A stretch of DNA of 64,000 nt from Patescibacteria group bacterium (GTDB taxonomy: Bacteria > Pseudomonadota > Alphaproteobacteria > Micavibrionales > UBA2020): contig DASPMW010000109.1 in NCBI GenBank assembly GCA_035626855.1, positions 895-64,894 on the forward strand, written 5' to 3'. Positions within the stretch are counted from its first letter, which is position 1, and the number at the start of each line of letters is the position of its first letter. The notes under the pieces are model-generated. The model worked only from the letters and a program-made list of their open reading frames with translations, was not told where the DNA came from and searched no databases. The position numbers were made by a program, and so were the translations under genes. This document shows positions 11,947-44,047 of this stretch, piece after piece.

Positions 11947-12303
11947 TTAATCTTTTCCGCTCGGTGGCAGGCCAAAAAAGATAAACACGAAAAAAATTAC
12001 AAGTGCAGCGACGGCCGTGGCGAGATTGCGTAGGTCGTCTCTGCGGCGCAGATAAAAAATGGCTGATATCACCATACTCTGCAAGGCAATAAATGATATC
12101 AGGCGAGCGGACGCCATATACACTTCAGGGGTGACGTAGTTCCAGCCTGTTTCCGAGCCCCATGGATAATCCTTGAACCGCGCTGGCGATACATAAATCT
12201 CAGAAACAATCATCGCAAAAAATAACAAGACGCCGACAAATAGGACGGCATAAGCAGCACTTAAAATCCTTCCCCCAACAGTATTTATAGTTTTTGATAC
12301 CAT
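11947..12303 (-). CDS. Small three-TM membrane protein in an AT-rich insert
   Basis: 118 aa with three hydrophobic segments (AVLFVGVLLFFAMIV, LISFIALQSMVISAIFYL, AVAALVIFFVFIFFGL). The DNA is AT-rich, and the ATG overlaps the cysS 3' end by 19 nt. Confidence 0.45.
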   Translation of the reverse strand: MVSKTINTVGGRILSAAYAVLFVGVLLFFAMIVSEIYVSPARFKDYPWGSETGWNYVTPEVYMASARLISFIALQSMVISAIFYLRRRDDLRNLATAVAALVIFFVFIFFGLPPSGKD

Positions 12304-13694
12304 TGCGTGCCTTCTGGCCTATCCTTCAACATTAACCCAGTTTCGAGCAATACAGCACGCAACCGGTCAGCTTCTGCCCAATTTCTTTCTCGCCTCGCCG
12401 TGTCGCGAAGGGCGAGCAGATCTTCCTGCTCCTTCGTCAGTTGCGGCTTGTCCAGCGTCACGCCGCCAAGGCCCAACGCACTGTCGGCAGCATCGAGAAT
12501 AGCGAGCTTGTCCGGCACGGGCAGCGCCTCGTCCCGCATCGCTTCCCAAAGCGCGGAGAGCGCGATGGGCGAATTGAGGTCGTCCTGCATCGCCGCGTCG
12601 ATTTTTTGCACAACCGCCTTCGCCGCCGCGCCTGGCTGCGCCGCCGCCGGATAGGCGGCGCGCCATTCATCCGCCTTGTGGCAGAGCGTGTCGTAGGAGG
12701 TGCGAGCGCCGTCAAGCGAGTCCCAACTGAATTTAAGCTGCCCGCGGTAATGCGCCGTCAGGCACAGATAGCGGTAATGCATCGCCGTGTAACCTGCATC
12801 CAGCACCTTCTGCAAGGTGAGGAAGCCGTCTTTCGATTTCGACATCTTGTCGTTATCGAGCAGAAGGAATTCGCCATGCAGCCAGTAATTCACCCATTGA
12901 TGATCGAAACAGCCTTCGGACTGCGCAATCTCGTTCGTGTGGTGCACGGGGATATGGTCGATGCCGCCGCAATGGATGTCGATATACTCGCCAAGGTATT
13001 TCGTCGCCATCGCCGAGCATTCGATATGCCAGCCCGGGAAGCCTTCGCCCCAGGGACTCGGCCATTTCATGATCTGGTTCGGGTATTTCGATCCGTGCAA
13101 TGTGAACCACAGGACGAAATCCGTGGGGTTGCGCTTGTTGTCATCCGCCTCGACGCGGCCCTGCAGGTCCTGCGCCTCCGGCATGCGCGCCAGGTCGCGG
13201 TAATGCGGGAATTTCGCCGTGTCGAAATAGACATTCGGCTGGTTGCCCCCTGATTTGTAGGCATAGCCCTTCTGCTCCAGCGTTTCGACCATGCCGATCA
13301 TTTCGGGGATATGATCGGTCGCGCGGCATACGATATGCGGCTTCAGGATGCCGAGCCTGCGGCAGTCGGCGAAGAACGCTTCTTCGTAAAACTTCGCAAT
13401 GTCCCAAGGCGATTTCTGCTCGCGCGCGGAGGCGAGCGCCATTTTATCTTCGCCCTCGTCGGCATCGGATTGCAGGTGACCGACATCGGTGATGTTCATG
13501 ACATGGGTCAGCGCGAAGCCCGCGCGCGCGATTGTCCGGCGCAGCAGGTCCTCGAACACATAGGTGCGGAGGTTGCCGATATGGGCATAGTTGTAAACCG
13601 TCGGCCCGCAGCAATAGAGCTTCACCTGCTTCGGCTCGAGCGGCTTGAATTCTTCCTTCTGGCGCGTGAGCGTATTGTAGAGGTGGAGCGGCAT
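12285..13694 (-). CDS. cysS: Cysteine--tRNA ligase
   Basis: 469 aa with the HIGH motif (YNYAHIGNLRTY) and KMSKS (DKMSKSKDG), plus class I cysteinyl-tRNA synthetase architecture. Confidence 0.95.
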   Translation of the reverse strand: MPLHLYNTLTRQKEEFKPLEPKQVKLYCCGPTVYNYAHIGNLRTYVFEDLLRRTIARAGFALTHVMNITDVGHLQSDADEGEDKMALASAREQKSPWDIAKFYEEAFFADCRRLGILKPHIVCRATDHIPEMIGMVETLEQKGYAYKSGGNQPNVYFDTAKFPHYRDLARMPEAQDLQGRVEADDNKRNPTDFVLWFTLHGSKYPNQIMKWPSPWGEGFPGWHIECSAMATKYLGEYIDIHCGGIDHIPVHHTNEIAQSEGCFDHQWVNYWLHGEFLLLDNDKMSKSKDGFLTLQKVLDAGYTAMHYRYLCLTAHYRGQLKFSWDSLDGARTSYDTLCHKADEWRAAYPAAAQPGAAAKAVVQKIDAAMQDDLNSPIALSALWEAMRDEALPVPDKLAILDAADSALGLGGVTLDKPQLTKEQEDLLALRDTARRERNWAEADRLRAVLLETGLMLKDRPEGTQWYQKL

Positions 13695-22420: not shown

Positions 22421-23830
22421 ATGTGGTCGCTAAAGTCACTGCTTACATGGCAACGCGATAAGCCGGACGCGGGAAAGTCGCCCGGCGTCAATGTCGATGC
22501 GCCTGTCGTCCTTGAGGCGAAATCGATGGCGGGCGCCCAGCCGCTGCTCGATTACATCAAGGGATTCGAGTGCAATTCCAACATCGCGATCGCGGCGGCA
22601 GAGGGAAAGCGCCTCGGCCCCTATTTCAACGCGCTTGGCGGCTACCTGAGCCAGGCGATCGAGCTCGACACCACGCCGCGCGCGCCCGAAGAAACCGCCG
22701 CGCTGAAGGACGCCGCGCAGCCAGAGCGCCTGCGAACCTTGTTCAACACTGTCGCGGAGAAAACACGCAACACGCTTGTATCGGATGTCGTCATCGCGCC
22801 GCTGACCGTTTTGCAAAACGGCCCCGCCGCGCATTTCTTCAAGGATCAGGACCAGTTTGCGATCGGCTATGAAACGGGCGGCCACCCGTTCAAGTTCGGC
22901 TTCCTGCAGGTCTTCGAAAACAAGCGCCCGACCGAAGGGAAAGGCAGCGTGAGCTTTCCGGTCTTCCTGCTCGATGAAGCCATGATGGACGCCGTCGCGC
23001 CGCACGCCCCCGAGGCATTGCTGCGCGGGCTGCAGAAAACCCTCGCCTTCGTGAATCACGACATGCTGCACCACCTGACGGCGCCCGTCATCAAGGGCTC
23101 GGTTGCCGCGAAAATATCACCGGACCCCGCCGCCAATGCGCTTTATTTCCCGGAGCATCCCCTGCGGCTGTGGCTGGAGCAACTACCCAAGTTCGGCGAT
23201 AACGAACTCTATGAAGAATGGGCGCAGATCAGCCATGAAGGCGCGATGCTGTCGCCCGCCAACCTTGCGCAGGTCGCGTCGCTCGACCGCGATGTAGCGC
23301 AGTTTTTTAAGGACCTCAAAACCATCGGGCAGGATATCGCCGCCGAAAAGGGCGTGCCGGCGGCGCATGAGGTTGTCGATTACTACGGCATGGTGATGGC
23401 GCATGCCCTGACCCGCGTCTTTCCCCTGCACCACCCCGTGATTGCGCGCTGCCTCGACGGCTTGCAGGCGGCCGACCCGCAGCCGGCGACGCCGGAGAAT
23501 GCCGCCGCCGACGCGGTCGGGGGAATGCGGGAAAGGCCGGATCTCGCGCTGAAAAACCTGATGCAATTGGTGACGATCAATGGCGGATTGATGCGGCTGG
23601 TCGACAATTACCGCAAGGAGGGCCTGCATATCCTGCCCGCGGAAGAAGACAAAAATCCGGACTGGAAAGGCGTCAAGCTGCTGCAGATCGCGCGGATGGC
23701 AATGGATGACGTCCACCCGCATATGCCGGAGCCGCTTAACAACAGCATGAAGGAAATGCGCGCGCAGGCGGGCCCGCAAACCGTGCGCATGTTCGGCGCA
23801 ACCGTGAAGGCTTTTACCGGCACCTGGTAA
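22421..23830 (+). CDS. Hypothetical protein (orphan, 469 aa) with C-terminal GPQTVRMF...KAFT motif
   Basis: Long ORF with coding-like codon usage and no family I recognise; His-rich patch FVNHDMLHHL. The C-terminus AQAGPQTVRMFGATVKAFTGTW resembles the tails of the four paralogs at 24151-26226. Confidence 0.55.
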   Translation: MWSLKSLLTWQRDKPDAGKSPGVNVDAPVVLEAKSMAGAQPLLDYIKGFECNSNIAIAAAEGKRLGPYFNALGGYLSQAIELDTTPRAPEETAALKDAAQPERLRTLFNTVAEKTRNTLVSDVVIAPLTVLQNGPAAHFFKDQDQFAIGYETGGHPFKFGFLQVFENKRPTEGKGSVSFPVFLLDEAMMDAVAPHAPEALLRGLQKTLAFVNHDMLHHLTAPVIKGSVAAKISPDPAANALYFPEHPLRLWLEQLPKFGDNELYEEWAQISHEGAMLSPANLAQVASLDRDVAQFFKDLKTIGQDIAAEKGVPAAHEVVDYYGMVMAHALTRVFPLHHPVIARCLDGLQAADPQPATPENAAADAVGGMRERPDLALKNLMQLVTINGGLMRLVDNYRKEGLHILPAEEDKNPDWKGVKLLQIARMAMDDVHPHMPEPLNNSMKEMRAQAGPQTVRMFGATVKAFTGTW

Positions 23831-23854
23831 TTCCCGGAACGAAAATTGCCGCCC

Positions 23855-23986
23855 GGCATTGGCTGGGCAGGGGACAAAGCTGCCTTTCCCGTGTTCAAAG
23901 ACACAGTTCAGGTCGCTTTGTTTCCAACCGTTTCGGCCCTTGTGGCCGCGAGAGAAGATCCAAGGCTCACGCCTTGGATCTTTTTC
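23855..23986 (+). ncRNA. Candidate small RNA, tandem copy 1 (conserved 5' region, 5-bp hairpin, intrinsic terminator)
   Basis: GGCATTGGCT...GTGTTCAAAG...TTTCGGCCCTTGTGGCCGCGAGAGAAGATCCAAGGCTCACGCCTTGGATCTTTTTC. The 12-bp stem AAGATCCAAGGC/GCCTTGGATCTT plus a T-run is a + strand terminator. The unit is repeated at 24018-24141. Confidence 0.4.
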
Positions 23987-24017
23987 TTTGTTCACTTGGG
24001 AACGACATGCCGCGCTG

Positions 24018-24141
24018 GGCATTGGCTATGCAGGAACCGAGAGCATATCAGTGTTCAATCACAGATATATTCTCGTTTCCGCTAGTTTCGGTCCTCGTGA
24101 CCGCGAGAGAAGATCCAAGGCTCACGCCTTGGATCTTTTTC
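24018..24141 (+). ncRNA. Candidate small RNA, tandem copy 2
   Basis: GGCATTGGCT...GTGTTCAATC...TTTCGGTCCTCGTGACCGCGAGAGAAGATCCAAGGCTCACGCCTTGGATCTTTTTC. The last 41 nt are identical to copy 1. The upstream hairpin is CGGTC/GACCG against CGGCC/GGCCG in copy 1 (a compensatory change). A possible -35/-10 pair is TTGGCT-N16-CATATC. Confidence 0.4.
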
Positions 24142-24150
24142 GCATTCGGG

Positions 24151-24612
24151 TCACGACCTGCGCGTGAATTTCGCGGTGCCGGGTCCTGAAATGGGTTGGG
24201 TGAGCTTCATGGCGGGTGGCTGGAACGGCGGTGGCGGCGGTTTTGGCGCGGCAGCATACTGCGCTGCAAGGCCTGCCAGGATATTCTGGCGGCTGCCCTC
24301 ATAGGCGGGCCGGATAAAGTTGCTCCAGCGTCTGTTCGCATCCGCGTCATTCTCCTCCAGCGCCACGCGATCGGCCTGAAAGAGCGGTGTGACGGCCGTG
24401 GAATAGGCCTCGCTGGTGGTCAGAGGTCGGCCGTCCTTTATTCCGTATGACCCCTTCTGCGCCAGACCTGCAAGGCGTTCGAGATTGGCGGCGCCCTCAT
24501 TAAACAGCGCGGCGATTCCCTTGTGTTGCGCATGCAGCGCCTGGAACTGCAGCAGGTCGCGAAAATCCTCAAGCGTATTCACCTCGTAGGATTCGAGCGG
24601 CCGGGCGGTCAT
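24151..24612 (-). CDS. Orphan paralog D (153 aa) of the four-gene small-protein array
   Basis: LERLAGLAQKGSYGIKDGRPLTTSEAY..., a Pro-rich linker, and the C-terminus PISGPGTAKFTRRS. The start overlaps the stop of the upstream paralog as ATGA (24609-24612). Confidence 0.6.
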   Translation of the reverse strand: MTARPLESYEVNTLEDFRDLLQFQALHAQHKGIAALFNEGAANLERLAGLAQKGSYGIKDGRPLTTSEAYSTAVTPLFQADRVALEENDADANRRWSNFIRPAYEGSRQNILAGLAAQYAAAPKPPPPPFQPPAMKLTQPISGPGTAKFTRRS

Positions 24613-25052
24613 GGCGTTTCCCGGCGGAAATGCGCTGTTGGCGGCGCGGGGACGGGATGCGTCAGTAGCATCGGCGCAGTCAGCGGCACAGGCAACACGC
24701 CGGGTCCATGCGCCTTCTCCAGCGCGGTCAGGATCTGGTTTTTATTACGGGCGAAATCGGTCAGCAGGCCGCGCGCAGCCTCGGCGCCGGCCTCATCCTT
24801 CTCCATCTTTGCAGCGCTGATTGCCTCTCCGATGGGAGCCTGCGCGTGGTTGTAGGCGTCGACAAGCGTGAGCGGCGTGCCGTCCTCGGCCGCGCCGAAA
24901 TCTCCCTGCCAGGCCTGGCTTTCCATGCGCCGCAGCCGGACTGCGCTTTCAGTGAAAAGCGCGCTGAGGGCGGGTGTCCGCGCATGGCGCGATTCCATCA
25001 TCACAAGCCCGGCCAGCGCTTCCAGCGAAATCAGGTTGACCGGTCCCGTCAT
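24609..25052 (-). CDS. Orphan paralog C (147 aa)
   Basis: LRRMESQAWQGDFGAAEDGTPLTLVDAY... with the C-terminus PVPAPPTAHFRRETP. There is an ATGA overlap at 25049-25052. Confidence 0.6.
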   Translation of the reverse strand: MTGPVNLISLEALAGLVMMESRHARTPALSALFTESAVRLRRMESQAWQGDFGAAEDGTPLTLVDAYNHAQAPIGEAISAAKMEKDEAGAEAARGLLTDFARNKNQILTALEKAHGPGVLPVPLTAPMLLTHPVPAPPTAHFRRETP

Positions 25053-25801
25053 GGCGCGGCCCGCTTGCGAAACTGCGCTGTTTTCGGGGCGGAAACGGGG
25101 CCCGCGGACGCCATGTTGTAAACCGGCTTGCGCGCCTTCGCCAGGAACTCGCTCGTCGCGGCGTCATGGCGCATGACGAGGTGGCTTTTCATTCTTTCGC
25201 CATCCTGCGCGAGCCATTTATTTATCTCCTGCAGGTGCAGGCCGAGGCTCCCTTCCGACATTGCGGCCGCCATGTTGAGGTTATCATAGGGCTTGAAGAT
25301 CGCGCTCCATGCTTCCGCCAGCGTCTGTTCGCGGTCGGCGACGCGACCGTAGCTGCCCTTGGCCGTCTGCCACTGCAGCTCCTGTAACCCCTCCGCCATC
25401 TTGCCGAGCGTCCCGCCTGCCACATCCTTGTCCTTGGCACGAAGCAGGTCGATAAGACCGCCCAGCCGCTTTGTCCCGGGCTCTGCGCCGGGAACCTGGC
25501 GTTTCAGCTCGTGCATGGCGTCGGAGGCGAAGGCGAGAAAGACGTCGAAGGCTTCCCGAAGCGGGCCCTTCTCGGGCAGGTCGGAAAAAGCGCTGAGCAA
25601 GGCCTGAGAATCCCTGCGCAGCGTGTCGGCGTCGAGCCTGCCTGCCGATGCGTCATCTTCCATGCGGCGCAGGGTTTGCGCCCAGCGCCGGTATTCGCCT
25701 GCACTCAGCACGCCCGGCGTGACATCTGCCGCATAGTTAAAAAGGTCGCGAAGAATGGCAACGCTGTGAAAGTCGGCATGGGTTTGCGGTTGCGCGGTCA
25801 T
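25049..25801 (-). CDS. Orphan paralog B (250 aa, internally duplicated version)
   Basis: The second half reads LQELQWQTAKGSYGRVADREQTLAEAW... and ends GPVSAPKTAQFRKRAAP. The first half (RRWAQTLRRMEDDASAGRLDADTL) resembles the same module. There is an ATGA overlap at 25798-25801. Confidence 0.6.
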   Translation of the reverse strand: MTAQPQTHADFHSVAILRDLFNYAADVTPGVLSAGEYRRWAQTLRRMEDDASAGRLDADTLRRDSQALLSAFSDLPEKGPLREAFDVFLAFASDAMHELKRQVPGAEPGTKRLGGLIDLLRAKDKDVAGGTLGKMAEGLQELQWQTAKGSYGRVADREQTLAEAWSAIFKPYDNLNMAAAMSEGSLGLHLQEINKWLAQDGERMKSHLVMRHDAATSEFLAKARKPVYNMASAGPVSAPKTAQFRKRAAP

Positions 25802-26226
25802 GCGCCCAGCTTCTGCCGCGGCCGGAAGCGCGCGGTCACCGGCGCCGCGATCGGCTGCGGCTGGCTTGCCGCAGTTGCGAGATCATGTGTTTCCTCCAGC
25901 GCCTGGCGCATGGGCCCGCCCATCCACTGGAAGGACTTGAGGACATCTTCCCACTGCTCGAAAAGCCCGGGGCGGCCGGCATCGGCCAGCGCGCGGACTT
26001 GGTTGGCCGGGGCGACCACATAGTCGAGGGCGTCATCGAGCGATGCGGATTTTCCGCCGATAGTGCCGTAGCTGCCCTTCTGCACAAGGGTGCTCAGGTC
26101 GCTGAACCGCTGCGCCGACTGCGCGTAGAGGGTTTTTGCATCGGGATCCGTCGATTTGTCTGCGGAGGCATTAAAAAGGGCCTGAAAGCGCTCAACCCGC
26201 CACCATTCGATCTCTTTTCCAGCCAT
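25798..26226 (-). CDS. Orphan paralog A (142 aa from ATG 26226)
   Basis: FSDLSTLVQKGSYGTIGGKSASLDDAL... with the C-terminus PIAAPVTARFRPRQKLGA. I prefer the ATG at 26224-26226 (GGGGGGA 6-7 nt upstream) to the TTG at 26244. Confidence 0.6.
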   Translation of the reverse strand: MAGKEIEWWRVERFQALFNASADKSTDPDAKTLYAQSAQRFSDLSTLVQKGSYGTIGGKSASLDDALDYVVAPANQVRALADAGRPGLFEQWEDVLKSFQWMGGPMRQALEETHDLATAASQPQPIAAPVTARFRPRQKLGA

Positions 26227-26303
26227 GCGATTCCCCCCTAACAAAGGCAGGTACAGTATAGCCGGTTATGTAAACTTGTCAAACGGGCGGGAATTGTGAA
26301 ATA

Positions 26304-26492
26304 TTATTTCACGATCTTCAGTTCGGTCTTGGCGAGGAATTTAAACACGCCTTCAAGCGATTCCTGGTACTCCTCCCACCGCTTTTGCTGGTCGGCGCGG
26401 GGCAGCCCGGCGATGTCGGGCCGGGCGAGGAAGGTTTCGCAGATCGTGTGCTCGCCGAAATATTCGCAGGCCCGGGCGGTGGAGCGCTTCAT
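26304..26492 (-). CDS. Hypothetical 62-aa protein
   Basis: MKRSTARACEYFGEHTICETFLARPDIAGLPRADQQKRWEEYQESLEGVFKFLAKTELKIVK. Third-position GC is high, and the start lies 11 nt after the stop of the membrane-protein gene. Confidence 0.5.
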   Translation of the reverse strand: MKRSTARACEYFGEHTICETFLARPDIAGLPRADQQKRWEEYQESLEGVFKFLAKTELKIVK

Positions 26493-26503
26493 GGAATGGA
26501 TCC

Positions 26504-27622
26504 TTACGGTGCCGCGATTTTCGGCGGGCGGTTGCCATGCTCGGGTGGGTTGATCGCCTCCGCCGCAGGCTGCTGGTTTTCGTTCGCGGGCGCAGGCGGC
26601 ACGATTTTCGCCTTCATCGCGAAGACCTGCTGCAGGTCGACCTTGTCGAGATCGGCAGGCGCCACTTCCGGCCCCGGGATGCGCTCGTTGTTGTTGGTCG
26701 CGACCTGCACGCTGGTCTTGGCGACCGGCGTTGCGGCATTGGTGACCGTGACGGGTACGGGCACGGGCGCTGCGACGACTTCCGGCTTCTTGCCGAAGCC
26801 GAACAGCTTGAGCGGCGCGGTCACGATATTCTTGAAGATCTGCTTCGCGCCGCCCGGAGTGATGCGGCGTTCCATTTCCGCGAGCACGACCGCATTCAGC
26901 AGATGCGCGCCGGCGATAAGCCCGTGGCCGTTCGCCTGGCCGATGCCGGCGAACACGCCCGCGGCGCCCGCGGTTATCAGTTTCGGATGCGCGTTGTATT
27001 CCGGCTTGCCCTGGATCGAGTTCTTCACGCCGAGCGCAAATGCGACCGCAACGACGGGCAGGATGAACAGCGCCGCGCCGCCCGCCATCAGCCCCGCGAG
27101 CGCGAAGCCGGCGTTCAGGTAGATGTCGGGGCGCTTGAAGATCGTCGTGACGATATCGACCGCCTTGGCAAAGCCCTTCTTCGGCTCGGCCGGCTTCTTG
27201 TCTTTTTCGTCGGCGATATGTTTCTTGGAAATGCTTTCGGCGAGGCGGAAATTCGCGACCGCGAAAAGAAGGCTGGCAGCGGCGGGCAGCCAGGCGCCCG
27301 TGGCGACCGTCGCGCCCGTCACGACGAGCAGCGCGAGGCCCCCGGCGCGCAGCGGCGTGCGGTCATCAAAAATGGCTTTCTTCACGCGCGGGTGCTTGTC
27401 GAGCCAGGTCGGCTGCAGCACGGCCGCCGTCTTGAGGGTCGCGGCGATGCCCGTCGCCGTCAGCATCGCGCCGAGGCCGACCGGGTTGGTGCCGGCGAAC
27501 ATCAATACATCTGCGGTGGTGTAGGCGATGCCCGGGTCGAGCACCACATGCTTGGTCAGTGCGCCGGGGATTTCCCAGCCGGTTGCCTTCGGTATTTCCT
27601 GCTTCGGTCCGGTCGTTCCCAT
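26504..27622 (-). CDS. Polytopic Gly/Ala-rich membrane protein with Pro-rich C-terminal tail (orphan)
   Basis: 372 aa with about six hydrophobic segments (for example GLALLVVTGATVATGAWLPAAASLLFAV, FALAGLMAGGAALFILPVVAVAFALGV). The C-terminal third is low-complexity (PVPVPVTVTNAATPVAKT...PPAPANENQQPAAEAINPPEHGNRPPKIAAP). It is the first gene of the minus-strand cluster. Confidence 0.6.
   Translation of the reverse strand: MGTTGPKQEIPKATGWEIPGALTKHVVLDPGIAYTTADVLMFAGTNPVGLGAMLTATGIAATLKTAAVLQPTWLDKHPRVKKAIFDDRTPLRAGGLALLVVTGATVATGAWLPAAASLLFAVANFRLAESISKKHIADEKDKKPAEPKKGFAKAVDIVTTIFKRPDIYLNAGFALAGLMAGGAALFILPVVAVAFALGVKNSIQGKPEYNAHPKLITAGAAGVFAGIGQANGHGLIAGAHLLNAVVLAEMERRITPGGAKQIFKNIVTAPLKLFGFGKKPEVVAAPVPVPVTVTNAATPVAKTSVQVATNNNERIPGPEVAPADLDKVDLQQVFAMKAKIVPPAPANENQQPAAEAINPPEHGNRPPKIAAP

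Positions 27623-28525: not shown

Positions 28526-28554
<29 letters not shown>
27841..28554 (-). CDS. YgjP/DUF45-family zinc metallohydrolase (M48-like)
   Basis: 237 aa. WGSCAPGGRIMYSWRLILAPYAVMDYVVAHEVAHRVHMDHSRQFW contains the HExxH motif in the typical DUF45 context. Confidence 0.8.
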
Positions 28555-37709: not shown

Positions 37710-40700
37710 TTAAACGACGATCGTGCCGGAGCCAACGAGGGCAGTCTCGTCCGTGCCGAGGTTGACGCCGGTGAGGGTTGCGATCTGCACCCAGCGCGTG
37801 CCGTTTGCCGTGCCATCCGCATCGACGCGGATGATGGTGTTGGCACCCTGGTTGATGACCTGCAGGTAGTCCTCGATCGGGCCGCCCGGGCTGCCCAGGA
37901 TCGCGGAAACGTCGATCACGTCGCCTTGGCCGACGTTGAAGTCGGTCACGGTGTCGCGGCCGTTCGCGGTCGAGGTGAACAAGAAGGTATCGGCATCCGC
38001 GCCGCCGGTCAGGCGGTCGTTGCCGAGGCCGCCGTCGAGGAAGTCGCCGCCCAGGCCGCCGAGCAGCGTATCGTTGCCGCCGAGGCCGGAGAGGGTGTTG
38101 ATGCCGTCGTTGCCGGTGAGCGTGTTGGCAACCGAGTTACCCGTGCCGTCGAGATCGAGCACGCCCGTCAGCAGCAGTTTTTCGAGGCCGGTCGCCAGCG
38201 TGACGTCGATCGTCGAGGAAGTGACGGTATCAACGCCGTTGCTGTCGATGATCACGTCGCCTAAGTCGTCAACGACATAGGTGTCGTTGCCGGCGAGGCC
38301 GATCAGCGTATCCGCGCCGCCGCCGCCGTCGAGCGTGTTGATGCCCGAGGTGCCGGTGATCGTGTTGGTGTTGGCGTTGCCGGTGCCGTTCAGGGCGCCG
38401 TTGCCGGTGAGCACCAGGTTGTCGATCAAGGCATCTGACTGCGCGCCGCCCAGATCGAAGCTGATGCTGGAGCGGACAGTATCGGTGCTGGTCGCCGAGC
38501 CTTCAACGCTGTCACCGACGTTATCGACCACGAAGGTGACGTTGTTGAGGCCGCCGCCCGCGTTGACCATGACATCCGCGCCCGCGCCGCCGTTGAGGGT
38601 GACGTTCGCGCCGACTGCTTCCGAGGTCAGCGTGTTGTCGCCGGTGCCGCCCGTGAGGGTGCCTGCGCCGGTGATGACGCCGTTCTCGATATTGGCCGAG
38701 AGCGTATAGGTGCCGTTCGATTCGACGGTGTCATCGCCTTCGCCGGCTGCTTCGGAAACCACATCGGTCGAGGAGTCGACGACGTAGTAATCGTCGCCCA
38801 TGCCGCCGATGAGGCGATCGTTGCCGCCGCCGCCGTCGAGCGTGTCGTTGCCGCCAAGGCCGGTCAGGGTGTTGTTGCCCGTGTTGCCGGTGATGACGTC
38901 ATCATCGTTCGTGCCGGTGATGTTGATGTTCCCCGTGCCGGTTGCGATCACGTTCTCGAGGTTGCTGCCGGTCAGCGTGTAGTTGACGGAGGTGAAGAGC
39001 GTATCGTCGCCTTCGCCCAGCAGCTCGGTCACGACGTCGCCCGCGTTGTCGACATAGTAGGTGTCGTCGCCGTCGCCGCCGGTCATGCTGTCCGCGCCGG
39101 TGCCGCCGTCGAGCGTATCGTTGCCGAGGCCGGATTCCAGCGTGTCGTTGCCGCCAAGGCCGTTCAGGACGTTGTCGCCGTCGGTGCCCGTGATCGAGTT
39201 GTCGGAGGCGTTGCCGGTGCCATCGATCGCGCCGACGACCAGGGTGTCGAGAATGAGGTTCTCGACGCCCGCGCCGAGCGTCAGGGAAACGCTGGAGAAC
39301 GCGGTGTCGTTGCCGCCGCCGAGGTCGGTGACCACGTCGCCGACGTTATCGACGATGAAGTAGTCGTTGCCCGCGCCGCCTTCCATCGAGTCCGCGCCGG
39401 CGAGGCCGTCGAGCGTGTTGTTGCCCGAGTTGCCGACCAAGGTGTTGACCGAGGCATTGCCGGTTGCGTTGAAGTCGCCGGTGCCCGACAGGGTCACATT
39501 CTCGAACTCAGCTGCCGCGGTGTAGGAGTAGCCGGCGACGACGGTATCGTTGCCTTGACCCGCCACTTCCGAGAGCACATCGCCGGGGTTGTCGGTGACG
39601 TAGGTATCGTCGCCCGTGCCGCCGATGAGCGTATCGACGCCCGCGCCGCCATCGAGCGTGTTGTTGCCCGAGTTGCCGGTGATGGTGTTGGCGGCCGCGT
39701 TGCCGGTGCCGTTGATGTTGGCGGTGCCGGTGAGGTTGAGGATTTCAACTTCGCTGGTGCCGCTCAGGGTGTAGCTGACCGAGGCGTTGACGGTATCGGT
39801 GCCTTCGCCCGCGTTTTCGAATACCTGGTCGCCGGCGTTATCGACGAAGTAGAGGTCGTTGCCTGCGCCGCCGGACATCGCGTCCGCGCCGCCCATGCCG
39901 TCGATCGTGTTGGCGTTACCGTTGCCGGTGATGACGTTCGCGCCGGCATCGCCGATGGCGGTGACAGCCGCACCGGTGATGGTCAGGTTCTCGATGTTGC
40001 CGGACAGGGTGTAGTCGACCGAGGAAATCACGGTATCGGTGCCCTGGCCTGCCAGTTCGGAAACGACGTCGAGGGAGCTGTCAACGACGTAGGCATCGTT
40101 GCCGAGACCGCCGATCATGGTGTCGTCGCCCGTGCCGCCGTCGAGGCTGTCATTGCCGTCGCCGCCCGACAGGATGTCGATATCCGCGCCGCCCGACAGC
40201 GTATCCTGGCCGTCGCCGCCCGACAGGACGTCGTTGCCGGCGAGGCCGGTGAGGGTGTTGTTCGACGCGTTGCCGGTGATGATGTTGGCGTCGCCATTGC
40301 CCGTGCCGATGAGAGCGGTGCCGGTCAGGGTCAGGTTATCGACATCGGTCGTGCCAGCCGCGCCCAGGTCCCAGTTGATGCTGGAGCGGACTTCGTCGCC
40401 GGCAAGGTTGCCGTCAACGGTATCAAGCGCGTTGTCGACGACGAACACGGTGCGAATGTAAGCGCTGGTGCTGCTCATCGTGTCCGCGCCTGTGCCGCCA
40501 TCGAGCGTTTCGGTGCCGCTGACGCCGTACTTGGTGCTCGGCGTTCCATTAACGTTGTTGACCAGCGTGTCGTTGCCATCGCCGCCCAGCAGGATGTTGT
40601 TCACCGAGGGTTCGCCGAAAAAGGCGCCGTTGAAGGTGGAGTTGTCGGTGATGACGTTCGCGCCGGTGTTGCCCGTCGCGGTCATCGCGAGCGCGCCGTA

Positions 40701-42164
40701 TTTCTGTGCATCGCCTTCCAGCGTCAGGTTTTCGAGGTTACCGGACAGGGTATAGGAGGTGTTGTTGCGCAGAATAACCGTATCTGTGCCGGCCGCAGCG
40801 TCTTCCGAGACGATGTCGCCATTGTTGTAGATGATGTAAACATCGTTGCCTGCGCCGCCAATGAGCGTATCGGTGCCGCCCGCGCCGCCGCCATCAAGCG
40901 TATTGGCGAGCGCGTTGCCGGTCAGGACGTTGGAGCCGGTCGTGCCAACCGCGGTCGAGCCTGCAATGGCTGACGCGGTGAGCGTGAGGTTTTCGACGTT
41001 GGAAACGGTGGCGCCCTGGAGGCTCAGCGTCACATCGGAGAGGATAGTGTCGGTGCCGTCGCCGCCGTCAACGACTTCCGCGCCGCTGTGGACGAGGAGC
41101 GTGTCATTGCCGTCGCCGCCATTCAGCGTGTCGTTGCCCGAGACGCCATCGAGCGTGTTGTTGCCGGAGTTGCCGGTGATGATGTTCACGGACGCGTTGC
41201 CGGTGCCGTTGAAGTTGCCGGTGCCGGTCAGGGTAAGGTTTTCGAAGTTCGCGCTGAGGGTTGTCGTGAAGCCCGCGTTCACGGTGTCGGTGCCTTCCGC
41301 CGCCGCTTCGGTGATGCTGTCGGACGCGTTGTCGAGGAAGTAGGTGTCGTCGCCGAGACCGCCCGCCATGCTGTCGTTGCCCGCGCCGCCTTCCAGCGTG
41401 TCGTTGCCGTCGCCGCCAACGAGCGTGTCGTTCGCGCCGCCGCCGTCTAGCGTGTTGCCGAGGTCGTTCGCCGTAATCACGTTCGCGCCGGTGCTGCCGG
41501 TCGCGGTTGCGCCCGCGCCTGCGGCTGCGGAGAGCGTGAGGTTCTCGACGCCCGCGCTCTGGGTAGCAAGGCTCCAGCTGACATCCGAAACGATAAGGTC
41601 GGATGCGCCGTTCGCGCCGGTCACGGTGTCGCCCGTGCTGCCAACCAGGAAGGTGGTGTTGCCGCCGCCGGTGCCCGACATGATGTCGGAGCCCGCGCCG
41701 CCATCCAGCGTGTTGCTGCCGGCGGATGCGTTGATGAGCGTGTTGGCAAGGCCGTTGCCCGTCAGCGTGAGGCCGGTACCGGAGGTGATAGTGCCGTTCT
41801 CGATGAAATCGCCGAGGGTGTAGGTGACGGATGCGCGCACCGAATCAATGCCGCCGCCATCCGTGGTGGCGTCGGTTTCATCCGCGACGTCGAGGATGCT
41901 GTCGACGACATAGGTATCGTTGCCGTCGCCGCCGTACATGTAGTCGTCGCCGGTGCCGCCATCGAGGGAGTCGTTGCCGTCGCCGCCCAGCAGCGTGTCG
42001 TCATTCGCGTCGCCGTTCAGGGTGTCGTTGCCATTGCCGCCGTCAACGATGTCGTTTCCTGCGCCGCCATTGGCCGTGTCATTGCCTTTGTCGAGAAGGA
42101 TAACGTCTGCACCCGCGGTGCCGTTAAGAGAGTCGCTGCCGGTAGTGCCTTTGACGGTTGCCAT
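37710..42164 (-). CDS. Giant RTX (hemolysin-type calcium-binding repeat) protein, putative T1SS substrate
   Basis: 1484 aa consisting almost entirely of GGxGxDxUx nonapeptides (GGAGNDTLNGG..., GGDGNDTYVVD...). These are arranged in about 14 larger modules, each ending ...YTLSxxxENLTLTGxxxxxGTGN. It has no Cys and is acidic. The C-terminus (DVIDVSAILG...TIIRVDADGTANGTRWVQIATLTGV...GSGTIVV) is typical of a non-cleaved T1SS signal region. Confidence 0.9.
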   Translation of the reverse strand: MATVKGTTGSDSLNGTAGADVILLDKGNDTANGGAGNDIVDGGNGNDTLNGDANDDTLLGGDGNDSLDGGTGDDYMYGGDGNDTYVVDSILDVADETDATTDGGGIDSVRASVTYTLGDFIENGTITSGTGLTLTGNGLANTLINASAGSNTLDGGAGSDIMSGTGGGNTTFLVGSTGDTVTGANGASDLIVSDVSWSLATQSAGVENLTLSAAAGAGATATGSTGANVITANDLGNTLDGGGANDTLVGGDGNDTLEGGAGNDSMAGGLGDDTYFLDNASDSITEAAAEGTDTVNAGFTTTLSANFENLTLTGTGNFNGTGNASVNIITGNSGNNTLDGVSGNDTLNGGDGNDTLLVHSGAEVVDGGDGTDTILSDVTLSLQGATVSNVENLTLTASAIAGSTAVGTTGSNVLTGNALANTLDGGGAGGTDTLIGGAGNDVYIIYNNGDIVSEDAAAGTDTVILRNNTSYTLSGNLENLTLEGDAQKYGALAMTATGNTGANVITDNSTFNGAFFGEPSVNNILLGGDGNDTLVNNVNGTPSTKYGVSGTETLDGGTGADTMSSTSAYIRTVFVVDNALDTVDGNLAGDEVRSSINWDLGAAGTTDVDNLTLTGTALIGTGNGDANIITGNASNNTLTGLAGNDVLSGGDGQDTLSGGADIDILSGGDGNDSLDGGTGDDTMIGGLGNDAYVVDSSLDVVSELAGQGTDTVISSVDYTLSGNIENLTITGAAVTAIGDAGANVITGNGNANTIDGMGGADAMSGGAGNDLYFVDNAGDQVFENAGEGTDTVNASVSYTLSGTSEVEILNLTGTANINGTGNAAANTITGNSGNNTLDGGAGVDTLIGGTGDDTYVTDNPGDVLSEVAGQGNDTVVAGYSYTAAAEFENVTLSGTGDFNATGNASVNTLVGNSGNNTLDGLAGADSMEGGAGNDYFIVDNVGDVVTDLGGGNDTAFSSVSLTLGAGVENLILDTLVVGAIDGTGNASDNSITGTDGDNVLNGLGGNDTLESGLGNDTLDGGTGADSMTGGDGDDTYYVDNAGDVVTELLGEGDDTLFTSVNYTLTGSNLENVIATGTGNINITGTNDDDVITGNTGNNTLTGLGGNDTLDGGGGNDRLIGGMGDDYYVVDSSTDVVSEAAGEGDDTVESNGTYTLSANIENGVITGAGTLTGGTGDNTLTSEAVGANVTLNGGAGADVMVNAGGGLNNVTFVVDNVGDSVEGSATSTDTVRSSISFDLGGAQSDALIDNLVLTGNGALNGTGNANTNTITGTSGINTLDGGGGADTLIGLAGNDTYVVDDLGDVIIDSNGVDTVTSSTIDVTLATGLEKLLLTGVLDLDGTGNSVANTLTGNDGINTLSGLGGNDTLLGGLGGDFLDGGLGNDRLTGGADADTFLFTSTANGRDTVTDFNVGQGDVIDVSAILGSPGGPIEDYLQVINQGANTIIRVDADGTANGTRWVQIATLTGVNLGTDETALVGSGTIVV

Positions 42165-42428: not shown

Positions 42429-42956
42429 ATGGATAACTCTACCGCCCTTATCGAACAATATGGCATCTGCGCGCAGCTCGGCGCCTATCGCCTGCTGCCG
42501 GTATTCCAGAATACGACAGAGGAGGTGCGCCGCCTCATCACCGACATGTGGGAGCGCAACCGCGCCCTGCCCGCCGGCGCCAATGCGGAGGCCAGAGCGA
42601 GGCAGGTGGTGGTGATGGCGCTGGGGCCGGAGGGCAAGCCGGTCGGCGTCAGCACCGTTTACAAGGACAGCTTCGCGCATACCGGCATGAAGGCGGCACC
42701 CGAGGGCCTGTACTATTTCTTTCGCACCTTCGTGCAGCCGAGCGACCGCGTGCATCACCTGTCACGGTTGCTGACCGCCTGCACCTACGATCATCTCAGG
42801 GACTTGAGCGACAGCGCGCGGCCGAAGGGCGTCGTCATCGTCGCGGAAAACCCGAAGCTGACAAAGCCGGTGCTGGAGCGGCTGGTGGGCACGCTGGGCT
42901 GGGATTACATCGGCGAAGATTCGCGCGGCAAGCTTGTCTTCCGCCGCGATTTCTAA
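42429..42956 (+). CDS. Hypothetical protein (orphan)
   Basis: I chose the ATG at 42429 (MDNSTALIEQYGICAQLGAYRLLPVF...), 175 aa. The longer ORF from 42288 starts in unlikely sequence. No recognisable motif. Confidence 0.45.
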   Translation: MDNSTALIEQYGICAQLGAYRLLPVFQNTTEEVRRLITDMWERNRALPAGANAEARARQVVVMALGPEGKPVGVSTVYKDSFAHTGMKAAPEGLYYFFRTFVQPSDRVHHLSRLLTACTYDHLRDLSDSARPKGVVIVAENPKLTKPVLERLVGTLGWDYIGEDSRGKLVFRRDF

Positions 42957-44047
42957 AGGCCGGCGAGGATTTTCTGGTCAAGCGGGGGATGGCTGAGGAA
43001 GCCCTTGATGTCGTTATCCGCGAAGCCGAGCGACATCGGGCATTTCAGGCCGGGCACAACGGCGACGTCATACACTTCGGTCATCGCGCCCTCGGCATGG
43101 AACCACTCGACGCATTTGCCGGTCGCGAGGTCAATCACCTCGATGCCGCAGACGGGTTCGCGCCCAGCATCGGAGAGCTTGCCATCAAGTGCGAGACCTT
43201 CGAAATGCTTGTCGCGCGGCTTCGACAGCCCGACGAAGGCGTAATTGCCGTGGAACGACAATCCGCGCAGGAATCCCGGGCAAAAAGCCCGCGGCTGGAA
43301 TTTGCGGGCTGCAGTATCCACAGTACCAAGTTCGCCGGTGCCGGAGTTGAGCACCCAGAGTTCGCCATTATGCAGCCGCGGCGAATGCGGCATCGACATG
43401 CCCTCGCAGACGATCTCGTTGCTGCGCACATCGATCACCACGCCGCCGCCGCCGCGATGCGGCCGCCAGCCCTGGTCGGTGTCGCTGACGCCGCAGGCGG
43501 TGACATAGCGCGGGGCGCCGTTTTCCACGGCAAGGCCGTTGAGGTGGCAGCGGTCCTCGCCCACGATGGCCGAGATGAAGGCAGGCTTCCATACCGGGAT
43601 GAAACTATCCTTGGGGCTTGTCGTGGCGAGGCAGTTGAACAGCGTGTTGACGAAGATGATCCGGCCATCCGAAAGCTGCCCGACGTCATGCGCGTCGAGC
43701 ACGCCGGTGTTATGCGTCGTGCGCGGCACGTAGCAGGCGTCGTAGGTGTCCTGGATCAGTTTTCCTTTCGGCAGGCCGTTTTCGAAGCGCTGCATCTGGA
43801 AGTGCGTCGCAAGCAGCAGCGTGTTGCCGGCGACATGCAGCCCCATCGCCTTTTCAAAAATGCGCGCATGCACCATCAGCGCGCCCTGCGGATTGCGTCC
43901 GAGCAGATAGAACTTCCCCGACTGATAGGATGTCAGCGCCAGCGAAATATTCAGCCGCGCGAGGCACGCGATAAAGCCGTCCGACATTGCGAAGGTGACA
44001 GGCGGGGCTTTGTTTTCGGCAACCGGGGCCGGCGTCGCGTCGCTCAC
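42953..44047 (-). CDS. TIGR03032/DUF4915-like conserved hypothetical protein
   Basis: 364 aa. FVNTLFNCLATTSPKDSFIPVWKPAFISAIVGEDRCHLNGLAVENGAPRYVTA and HSPRLHNGELWVLNSGTGELG match my recollection of this uncharacterised beta-propeller-like family. The start is GTG. Confidence 0.55.
   Translation of the reverse strand: MSDATPAPVAENKAPPVTFAMSDGFIACLARLNISLALTSYQSGKFYLLGRNPQGALMVHARIFEKAMGLHVAGNTLLLATHFQMQRFENGLPKGKLIQDTYDACYVPRTTHNTGVLDAHDVGQLSDGRIIFVNTLFNCLATTSPKDSFIPVWKPAFISAIVGEDRCHLNGLAVENGAPRYVTACGVSDTDQGWRPHRGGGGVVIDVRSNEIVCEGMSMPHSPRLHNGELWVLNSGTGELGTVDTAARKFQPRAFCPGFLRGLSFHGNYAFVGLSKPRDKHFEGLALDGKLSDAGREPVCGIEVIDLATGKCVEWFHAEGAMTEVYDVAVVPGLKCPMSLGFADNDIKGFLSHPPLDQKILAGL

Follow-up and report, generated by a model that had tools for sequence, protein, structure and literature searches.

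Four consecutive genes on the minus strand, at positions 24151 to 26226 of the 64-kb stretch of DNA analysed here (the window, from contig DASPMW010000109.1), encode the small paralogous proteins A to D, members of a very rare, fast-diversifying and lineage-restricted orphan family. All four proteins share two short elements, an apical loop and a C-terminal tail, that are better conserved than their helices. The array is novel in that it cannot be assigned to any known family or system; no new mechanism is demonstrated. Tentatively, and with a chance that we place well short of even, we suggest that the array encodes interchangeable envelope-associated modules that are docked via the common tail.

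A translationally coupled array of true paralogs

According to the list of open reading frames (ORFs), the genes for A (142 amino acids, 25798-26226), B (250 amino acids, 25049-25801), C (147 amino acids, 24609-25052) and D (153 amino acids, 24151-24612) follow each other directly on the minus strand. As the initial annotation had stated, stop and start codons overlap at the three junctions (25798-25801, 25049-25052 and 24609-24612), all of which read ATGA on the coding strand. Such a coupled translation implies that the products are made in fixed proportions. Since the ATG codon of A is preceded at a distance of 6 nt by a Shine-Dalgarno sequence (GGGGGG) and the same start is found in the orthologs, the start that gives 142 amino acids is favoured over an upstream TTG codon.

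The proposed relationship among the four products was borne out by pairwise BLASTP comparisons (E-values of 4e-13 for C and D, 3e-7 for A and B, 8e-6 for A and D, and 2e-3 for A and C) and by a hidden Markov model (HMM) of the family that matches A to D at 1e-43 to 1e-50 and no other protein of the window. Orthologs were found in at least 10 other contigs, with those of A being about 50% identical, and the ratios of non-synonymous to synonymous substitutions (dN/dS), calculated where dS is unsaturated, are 0.13-0.18 for A, 0.12-0.19 for B and 0.125 for D. The genes of the array encode real proteins, and these are true paralogs under purifying selection.

The four members differ in their architecture and distribution. 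A consists of one module, whereas B carries the module twice, as had been suspected: its N-terminal 105 residues (nucleotides 25487-25801) are collinear with the family profile. Alignment of a profile of B-type N-terminal halves (1-105) with a family profile built without B (1-112) gave 94% and E=1e-7 in hhalign, the family HMM matched the N-terminal half of B weakly and in a consistent position (best i-E 0.008), and the N-terminal half of a B ortholog matched A in BLASTP (3e-4). This N-terminal module is degenerate and has lost both the GxYG motif and the tail that are described below; the complete C-terminal module is encoded at 25049-25486. B is the array member that is kept most widely across genomes. 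C is a divergent D-type duplicate: the exhaustive database search gave no second cluster of its type, its best relatives are D-type proteins, and it is known from this genome only. At the related loci L007, L011 and L013, the gene that comes after B is a D-type ortholog, again joined to it by an ATGA overlap.

The initial annotation had assumed one transcript from about 27.7 to 24.1 kb. However, a scan detected a promoter ahead of A (TTGACA, a 16-nt spacer and TATACT; 26255-26282, minus strand) that agrees with the sigma-70 consensus in 11 of 12 positions. Since this near-consensus promoter is conserved and a terminator-like hairpin follows directly 3' of D (24110-24141, minus strand), the array probably forms its own transcription unit and is not merely the tail of the longer transcript. 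The -35 box, the adjacent CATAA and a TAnnCT -10 box are invariant in 7 genomes whereas the rest of the spacer is divergent. In L004 and L006, which lack A, the same promoter is located directly ahead of B, and it recurs in L010, L013 and L016, among them loci in which A is the only array gene. The promoter spacer holds a conserved element (TTTACATAA/TTTACCATAA). This element, TTTAC(C)ATAA, lies beside the -35 box (26262-26276, minus strand) and is kept in L001, L003-L007, L010, L013 and L016. Sigma-70 has no need of a conserved element in the spacer, and the element may be an operator for a regulator.

A family restricted to Micavibrio-like Alphaproteobacteria

The family had been described as unrecognised, and it has stayed so in searches at the level of sequence, profile, PDB fold and viral fold. 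A to D as well as three neighbouring gene products, the 372-residue membrane protein M372, a 62-residue protein (S62) and a 469-residue protein, have no match in Pfam, NCBIfam, PADLOC or PHROGs. Among the PDB sequences, the sole match to the family profile was a de novo coiled coil, which we take as noise, and Foldseek searches with a model of A gave generic helical bundles (best E 0.9 in the PDB and 0.27 in BFVD). A search with a word index in 5.8 billion clusters recovered the four proteins and two others only, and an exhaustive HMMER search over 1.84 billion representative proteins yielded about 15 true family clusters, all of them from Micavibrio-like Alphaproteobacteria. No additional loci were found when JGI metagenome contigs were scanned with A-type and B-type alignments, a scan of viral contigs gave no family locus, and phage and plasmid collections contained no tblastn match to B.

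The source of the window, a metagenome-assembled genome (MAG), is labelled "Patescibacteria group bacterium". This label looks wrong, and an assignment to Micavibrio-like Alphaproteobacteria fits: a homolog of M372 is labelled Micavibrio sp., and the MAG that contains it is syntenic with the window over more than 15 kb and has an RpsA that is 89% identical. Membrane proteins that are about 80-82% identical are encoded at five reference-genome loci.

Four-helix bundles with a conserved loop and tail

The AlphaFold2 model of A, calculated from an alignment of six sequences (pLDDT 85, pTM 0.72), has helices at residues 9-24, 28-49, 63-82 and 87-121, a short beta-hairpin at residues 55-60 between helices 2 and 3, and disorder from residue 122 onwards. 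According to this model, each module folds on its own into a bundle of four helices with a beta-hairpin, and it is not the small helical hairpin of WXG100-like architecture that had been put forward initially.

A central turn motif and a common C-terminal tail had also been claimed, and both are found in all four paralogs. For the turn, the existence of the element stands, but the motif is G-x-[YF]-G, with W-Q-G being confined to C. The turn is part of an apical helix-hairpin-helix loop with the consensus Gx[YF]Gx4[RK]x3L. It reads GSYGTIGGKSASL in A (26038-26076), GSYGRVADREQTL in the C-terminal module of B (25319-25357), GDFGAAEDGTPLT in C (24867-24905), where one residue is inserted and the Arg is missing, and GSYGIKDGRPLTT in D (24415-24453), all on the minus strand. 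The tail is a basic peptide of about 10 residues on a flexible Pro-rich tether, with the consensus [AG]PxTAxF[RK][RK]. Its versions, likewise on the minus strand, are APVTARFRP in A (25819-25845, behind a disordered Pro-rich linker), APKTAQFRK in B (25064-25090), APPTAHFRR in C (24621-24647) and GPGTAKFTR in D (24160-24186, behind a poly-Pro linker).

Among 16 modules with at most 30% identity, conservation amounts to 2.97 bits per column for the tail, 2.51 for the hairpin, and 1.9-2.1 for the helices. The tail is also specific: in all ORFs of the window and of the loci that were fetched, the pattern [AG]Px[TPA]AxF[RKT][RKPA] occurs 24 times, every time in a family member. It is present in its canonical form in every family protein of the 10 loci that contain an M372-type gene, and absent or degenerate in P0013 and P0016, two single family members that are encoded next to ygjP. 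The bundles are soluble, the cores of A to D are acidic (pI 4.75-6.1), the tails are basic, and none of the proteins contains Cys. A to D have no hydrophobic N-terminus (maximum 19-residue Kyte-Doolittle score 0.48-1.39), and as regards Sec or Tat signals, their N-termini are polar with no RR motif visible there.

The loop segment resembles the CW_7 repeat

The only matches outside the family in the exhaustive search were amidase/CHAP endolysin-like proteins, the C-terminal repeats of which align with positions of about 39-78 of the family profile (E 4.5e-6 to 2.3e-4; the scores are sums over the repeats). Pfam assigns these repeats to CW_7 (Cpl-7, PF08230). When the family profile was aligned with 17 CW_7 repeats, hhalign gave 84% over 38 columns and a score of 31.2, as compared to 8.6 +/- 1.9 (maximum 15.3) for 100 column shuffles and 8.0 for the reversed repeat. 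At the level of sequence, the resemblance is real; it is a local likeness and a functional lead rather than membership, and Pfam gave no CW_7 match for A to D, P0008, P0010, P0012, P0013 and P0015.

CW_7 is an autonomous three-helix bundle of 37-43 amino acids, with helices of 9, 9 and 13 residues, and its binding of GlcNAc-MurNAc-dipeptide relies on a Gln and a fully conserved Arg (PMC5705596). The family segment of 38 residues, i. e. the end of helix 2, the hairpin and the start of helix 3, spans the whole repeat. Family and repeat have in common a hydrophobic helix, G-x-[YFW]-G, four residues, R or K, three residues, L, and an aromatic residue at +8. On the other hand, the family has a single copy of the segment inside a predicted four-helix bundle of 120 residues, whereas CW_7 occurs as tandem units that follow a hydrolase domain. 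Moreover, unlike the CW_7 proteins, the family has neither a catalytic domain nor an export signal.

The membrane protein M372 and the small protein S62

In agreement with the initial annotation, the ORF list places M372 (26504-27622) and S62 (26304-26492) upstream of the array on the same strand. The M372 family comprises 56 clusters. An AlphaFold2 model of M372 that is based on 31 sequences is confident for residues 10 to 275 or so (core pLDDT 83-94); the C-terminal 100 residues or so are Pro-rich and modelled as disordered, with conserved motifs at the end. The model consists of four helical hairpins with turns of only 2-4 residues (AGTN, GA, AGG and NGH), none of which is charged. All 31 of the 31 K/R residues in loops are located in alternate loops on one side only. 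Given this distribution and the positive-inside rule, both termini and all sizeable loops are predicted to be cytoplasmic (N-in/C-in), which leaves almost no periplasmic exposure. A Foldseek search of the model against the PDB gave no fold or transporter match (best E 0.33). M372 as modelled is closer in appearance to an anchor that faces the cytoplasm, or to a small channel, than to a protein exporter.

The orphan protein S62 is encoded at all loci that contain B; it is absent from L010 and L016, which have M372 and A, and from L014, which has M372 only. At L013, a second M372-type gene (2117-2590; 66% identity over the N-terminal 139 amino acids) is located downstream of S62, A, B and D, and two membrane protein paralogs thus flank the array in some genomes. 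The clusters P0033 and P0058 are found together on one contig of 22.9 kb. A distant M372 homolog with 50% identity is encoded at L015 (8369-9067) in a different genomic context; the two small ORFs behind it (108 and 119 amino acids) have Pro-rich basic C-termini and no detectable similarity to the family.

A variable slot between conserved genes

The slot that the array occupies is bounded by leuA-ygjP on one side and by the convergent rpsA gene on the other. The contents of this slot vary even among genomes with an RpsA that is 97% identical to that of the window, and the number of array copies ranges from one to four. With M standing for the membrane protein gene, the slot holds M only in L014, M-A in L010 and L016, M-S62-B in L004 and L006, M-S62-A-B in L001, L003 and L005, M-S62-A-B-D in L007, S62-A-B-D-M' in L013, and M-S62-A-B-C-D together with the orphan gene for the 469-residue protein in the window. 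In the distant relatives (L008 with P0013, and the contig of P0016), a lone member with a missing or degenerate tail follows ygjP, with no membrane protein gene in between. Since these distant singletons lie directly after ygjP, the chromosomal position is ancestral. The clade with the membrane protein gene in the slot is characterised by the array and the canonical tail. As to whether homologs are always found beside the membrane protein, the association is frequent, but it is not obligatory, as indicated by L014 with its membrane protein gene only and by the solitary, tail-less P0013 and P0016. The genes leuA and ygjP, the latter encoding a YgjP-like metallopeptidase, overlap by 29 nt (28526-28554) and lie next to each other in all of the related genomes examined.

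The genes of the slot differ strongly in their rates of divergence. Between the window and L001, identity is 97% for RpsA, 94% for LeuA, 80% for M372, 70% for YgjP, 67% for S62, 50% for A and 33% for B. When L001 and L005 are compared, identity is 91% for B and 54% for A, and dS for A is 1.17 as compared to about 0.3 in its neighbours. In a sliding window, the two loci are 85-100% identical in ygjP and M, 57-74% in S62, the spacer and A, and 82-94% from the start of B onwards. The tract of low identity covers about 700 bp (L001 9460-10190, L005 3557-4265) and is the result of a recombinational allele replacement that includes S62, the spacer and A.

Possible functions of the array

The idea of docked modules at the envelope builds on the tail. 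As a docking peptide, the common tail would bring every paralog to one partner. This partner would most likely be M372, the hairpin membrane protein from the upstream side of the array that is predicted to face the cytoplasm; M372 is the best candidate since the canonical tail is restricted to loci that contain it. The variable bundles would thereby be placed at the inner face of the envelope where the apical loop might bind a glycopeptide-type or other envelope ligand. The bundle bodies diversify through duplication in tandem, loss of genes and swapping of alleles by recombination, with tail and loop being kept constant. The docking, the identity of the partner, the ligand and the cellular location are what we infer from these patterns.

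Docking peptides are known from several systems: the C-terminal peptide of FtsZ, the NWETF pentapeptide of chemoreceptors, the cargo-loading peptides of encapsulins and the basic C-termini of the substrates of type IV secretion systems. As in these proteins, a folded helical domain is followed in the family by a Pro-rich disordered tether and a conserved peptide of about 10 residues that is carried by divergent proteins. However, APxTAxF[RK][RK] is not known to match any of these docking motifs, the similarity is an analogy only, and no genes for an encapsulin shell, a type IV secretion system or chemotaxis are adjacent to the array. Mimicry of the FtsZ C-terminal peptide was rejected because the spacing differs, encapsulin cargo is at most an architectural analogy, and sorting of the sortase or PEP-CTERM type was discarded as no hydrophobic segment follows the motif.

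Several observations weigh against docking at the envelope. The co-occurrence of the tail and M372 is confounded by phylogeny as there are essentially two clades, M372 occurs without the array in L014, and a family member occurs without adjacent M372 in L008. The match to CW_7 was noticed post hoc. The position of the ligand-binding Arg of CW_7 is occupied by R or K in 10 of 16 family members, the partner Gln is not conserved at the aligned position, and the model of A has a continuous helix at residues 63-82, with the invariant Pro73 in its middle, where CW_7 has helix-loop-helix. Moreover, a location in the cytoplasm does not go well with a ligand of the peptidoglycan type, and exposed or secreted proteins would account equally well or better for the fast evolution and the variation in copy number. 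Interaction, location and ligand of the array proteins are all putative.

Secretion has to be considered in two forms. The initial annotation had compared the proteins with the WXG100/Esx-like helical-hairpin substrates of a type VII-like secretion system, a reading that is effectively refuted, that failed all tests run and that we regard as extremely improbable. The resemblance is a formal one: the proteins are small and helical, they are encoded by adjacent, translationally coupled paralogous genes, and they have a central turn, which reads W-Q-G in C, and a C-terminal tail. In contrast, the family is predicted to form four-helix bundles, its motif is GxYG rather than WxG with Trp being present in C only, a YxxxD/E motif is missing, A to D have no match to WXG100 (PF06013) at E<=1 in Pfam or NCBIfam, and the host is a diderm, Gram-negative alphaproteobacterium. 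No EssC/EccC-type FtsK-SpoIIIE ATPase or other type VII secretion gene is present within about 10 kb in the window, L001, L004-L007, L014 and L016. The link to a secretion system could not be upheld in general either as no secretion machinery is encoded within about 10 kb at any of 10 loci, be it ATP-binding cassette (ABC) transporter, membrane fusion protein or TolC genes or a secretion ATPase. Nothing that was found points to secretion. Since the signals of type I secretion systems (T1SS) are not defined by sequence, a type I route is still conceivable. The proteins would then be secreted or prey-directed effectors, with the tail as an uncleaved signal for this or another route and the CW_7-like loop as an element that binds peptidoglycan of the prey or of the cell itself. 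We consider this unlikely, although the small, acidic, Cys-free proteins with their disordered C-terminus and no N-terminal signal would suit it, as would their rapid divergence, copy-number variation and allele replacement. The same is true for the Micavibrio-like lineage: Micavibrio possesses a complete T1SS, which it up-regulates upon attachment to prey, and neither type III nor type IV secretion systems (PMC3189940). An RTX substrate is encoded in the same window, and a CW_7-like segment makes best sense outside the cytoplasm. With the RTX/T1SS substrates of Micavibrio, the family shares the type of organism, the acidic and Cys-free composition, C-terminal unstructured information and the lack of an N-terminal signal. 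It differs in having no RTX repeats, no adjacent T1SS genes and a tail that is basic and conserved; the C-terminus of the RTX protein of the window is hydrophobic (...GSGTIVV), and no similarity between the two was found. In addition, M372 is predicted to have virtually no periplasmic exposure and has no transporter fold match, and dN/dS is well below 1. A combination of docking and secretion, in which tail and M372 form a novel targeting system of predatory Micavibrio-like bacteria, seems quite unlikely to us. In this case, the tail would bring the CW_7-like bundles, which would recognise peptidoglycan or muropeptides, to the envelope or allow their release through it; the bundles would contribute to feeding or to the recognition of the prey wall, and they would be diversified by cassette exchange as the prey change.

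The array proteins might also be purely cytoplasmic structural or regulatory proteins, such as hetero-oligomeric scaffolds with a basic, aromatic tail that binds anionic lipids or nucleic acids directly. They would then have no functional tie to M372 or peptidoglycan, and the neighbourhood would be inherited synteny. We judge this to be unlikely. It would agree with the absence of an export signal, the strong housekeeping-type promoter, the ancestral place after leuA-ygjP even in lineages without M372 at the locus, the separate occurrence of M372 and the family, and the translational coupling, which suggests stoichiometric assembly. However, it leaves unexplained why a tail of 10 residues is the most conserved part of paralogs that are 25-30% identical, why the canonical tail tracks M372, and why alleles are replaced like cassettes and copy numbers vary from one to four among near-identical genomes. 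Finally, diversifying sensors or immunity proteins might form an immunity or defence module with M372 as the membrane effector in a variable hotspot. The variable slot between core genes, the insertion of another orphan of 469 amino acids there, and the patchy, fast-evolving small genes beside a membrane protein, with alleles that are replaced by recombination, are in line with this possibility. We regard it as improbable since no component has a PADLOC or PHROGs match, no match was found in phage, plasmid and viral-contig collections, and Pfam and NCBIfam scans revealed no toxin or nuclease domain nearby. Moreover, unlike mobile defence genes, M372 is conserved in a fixed position throughout the lineage, including genomes that lack the array.

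The prey recognition and exploitation by epibiotic predators such as Micavibrio are largely obscure, and their genomes are rich in unassigned genes. The locus is a compact and tractable candidate, with a highly conserved promoter, a hairpin membrane protein, and variable bundles that carry two short elements. If the tail is a docking or export signal, it defines a new targeting motif, and if the apical loop binds a muropeptide, the principle of CW_7 is extended to a new scaffold. If neither is true, the locus is a clean case of the expansion of an orphan family by tandem duplication, domain fusion (in B) and allele replacement in a fixed slot.

Other features of the window

The 469-residue protein of the slot is encoded on the plus strand (22421-23830). 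It has 15 homolog clusters, all of them annotated as "hypothetical" and derived from MAGs of Alphaproteobacteria, and it is present in the slot of this genome only. An ORF of the same length at 12285-13694 is unrelated and encodes CysS. Next to the orphan gene, there is a direct repeat of about 150 bp with copies at 23836-23986 and 23999-24141 that are 90% identical over 67 nt. Both copies carry the hairpin AAGATCCAAGGCTCACGCCTTGGATCTT; one ends the 469-residue gene on the plus strand, the other ends D on the minus strand. The repeat may be the scar of an insertion that brought extra genes.

The GC content of the window is about 60%, and its genes include leuA, aroA and an rpsA with six domains; Micavibrio is filed by NCBI under Bdellovibrionota. 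The RTX protein of 1,484 amino acids (37710-42164, minus strand), which has 13 HemolysinCabind matches in addition to the hydrophobic C-terminus mentioned above, belongs to the classic type of type I secretion substrates. Hemolysin-related proteins have been described for Micavibrio (PMC3189940). Near the RTX gene, a protein of 364 amino acids (42953-44047, minus strand) is a full-length match to DUF4915 (E=3.5e-127).

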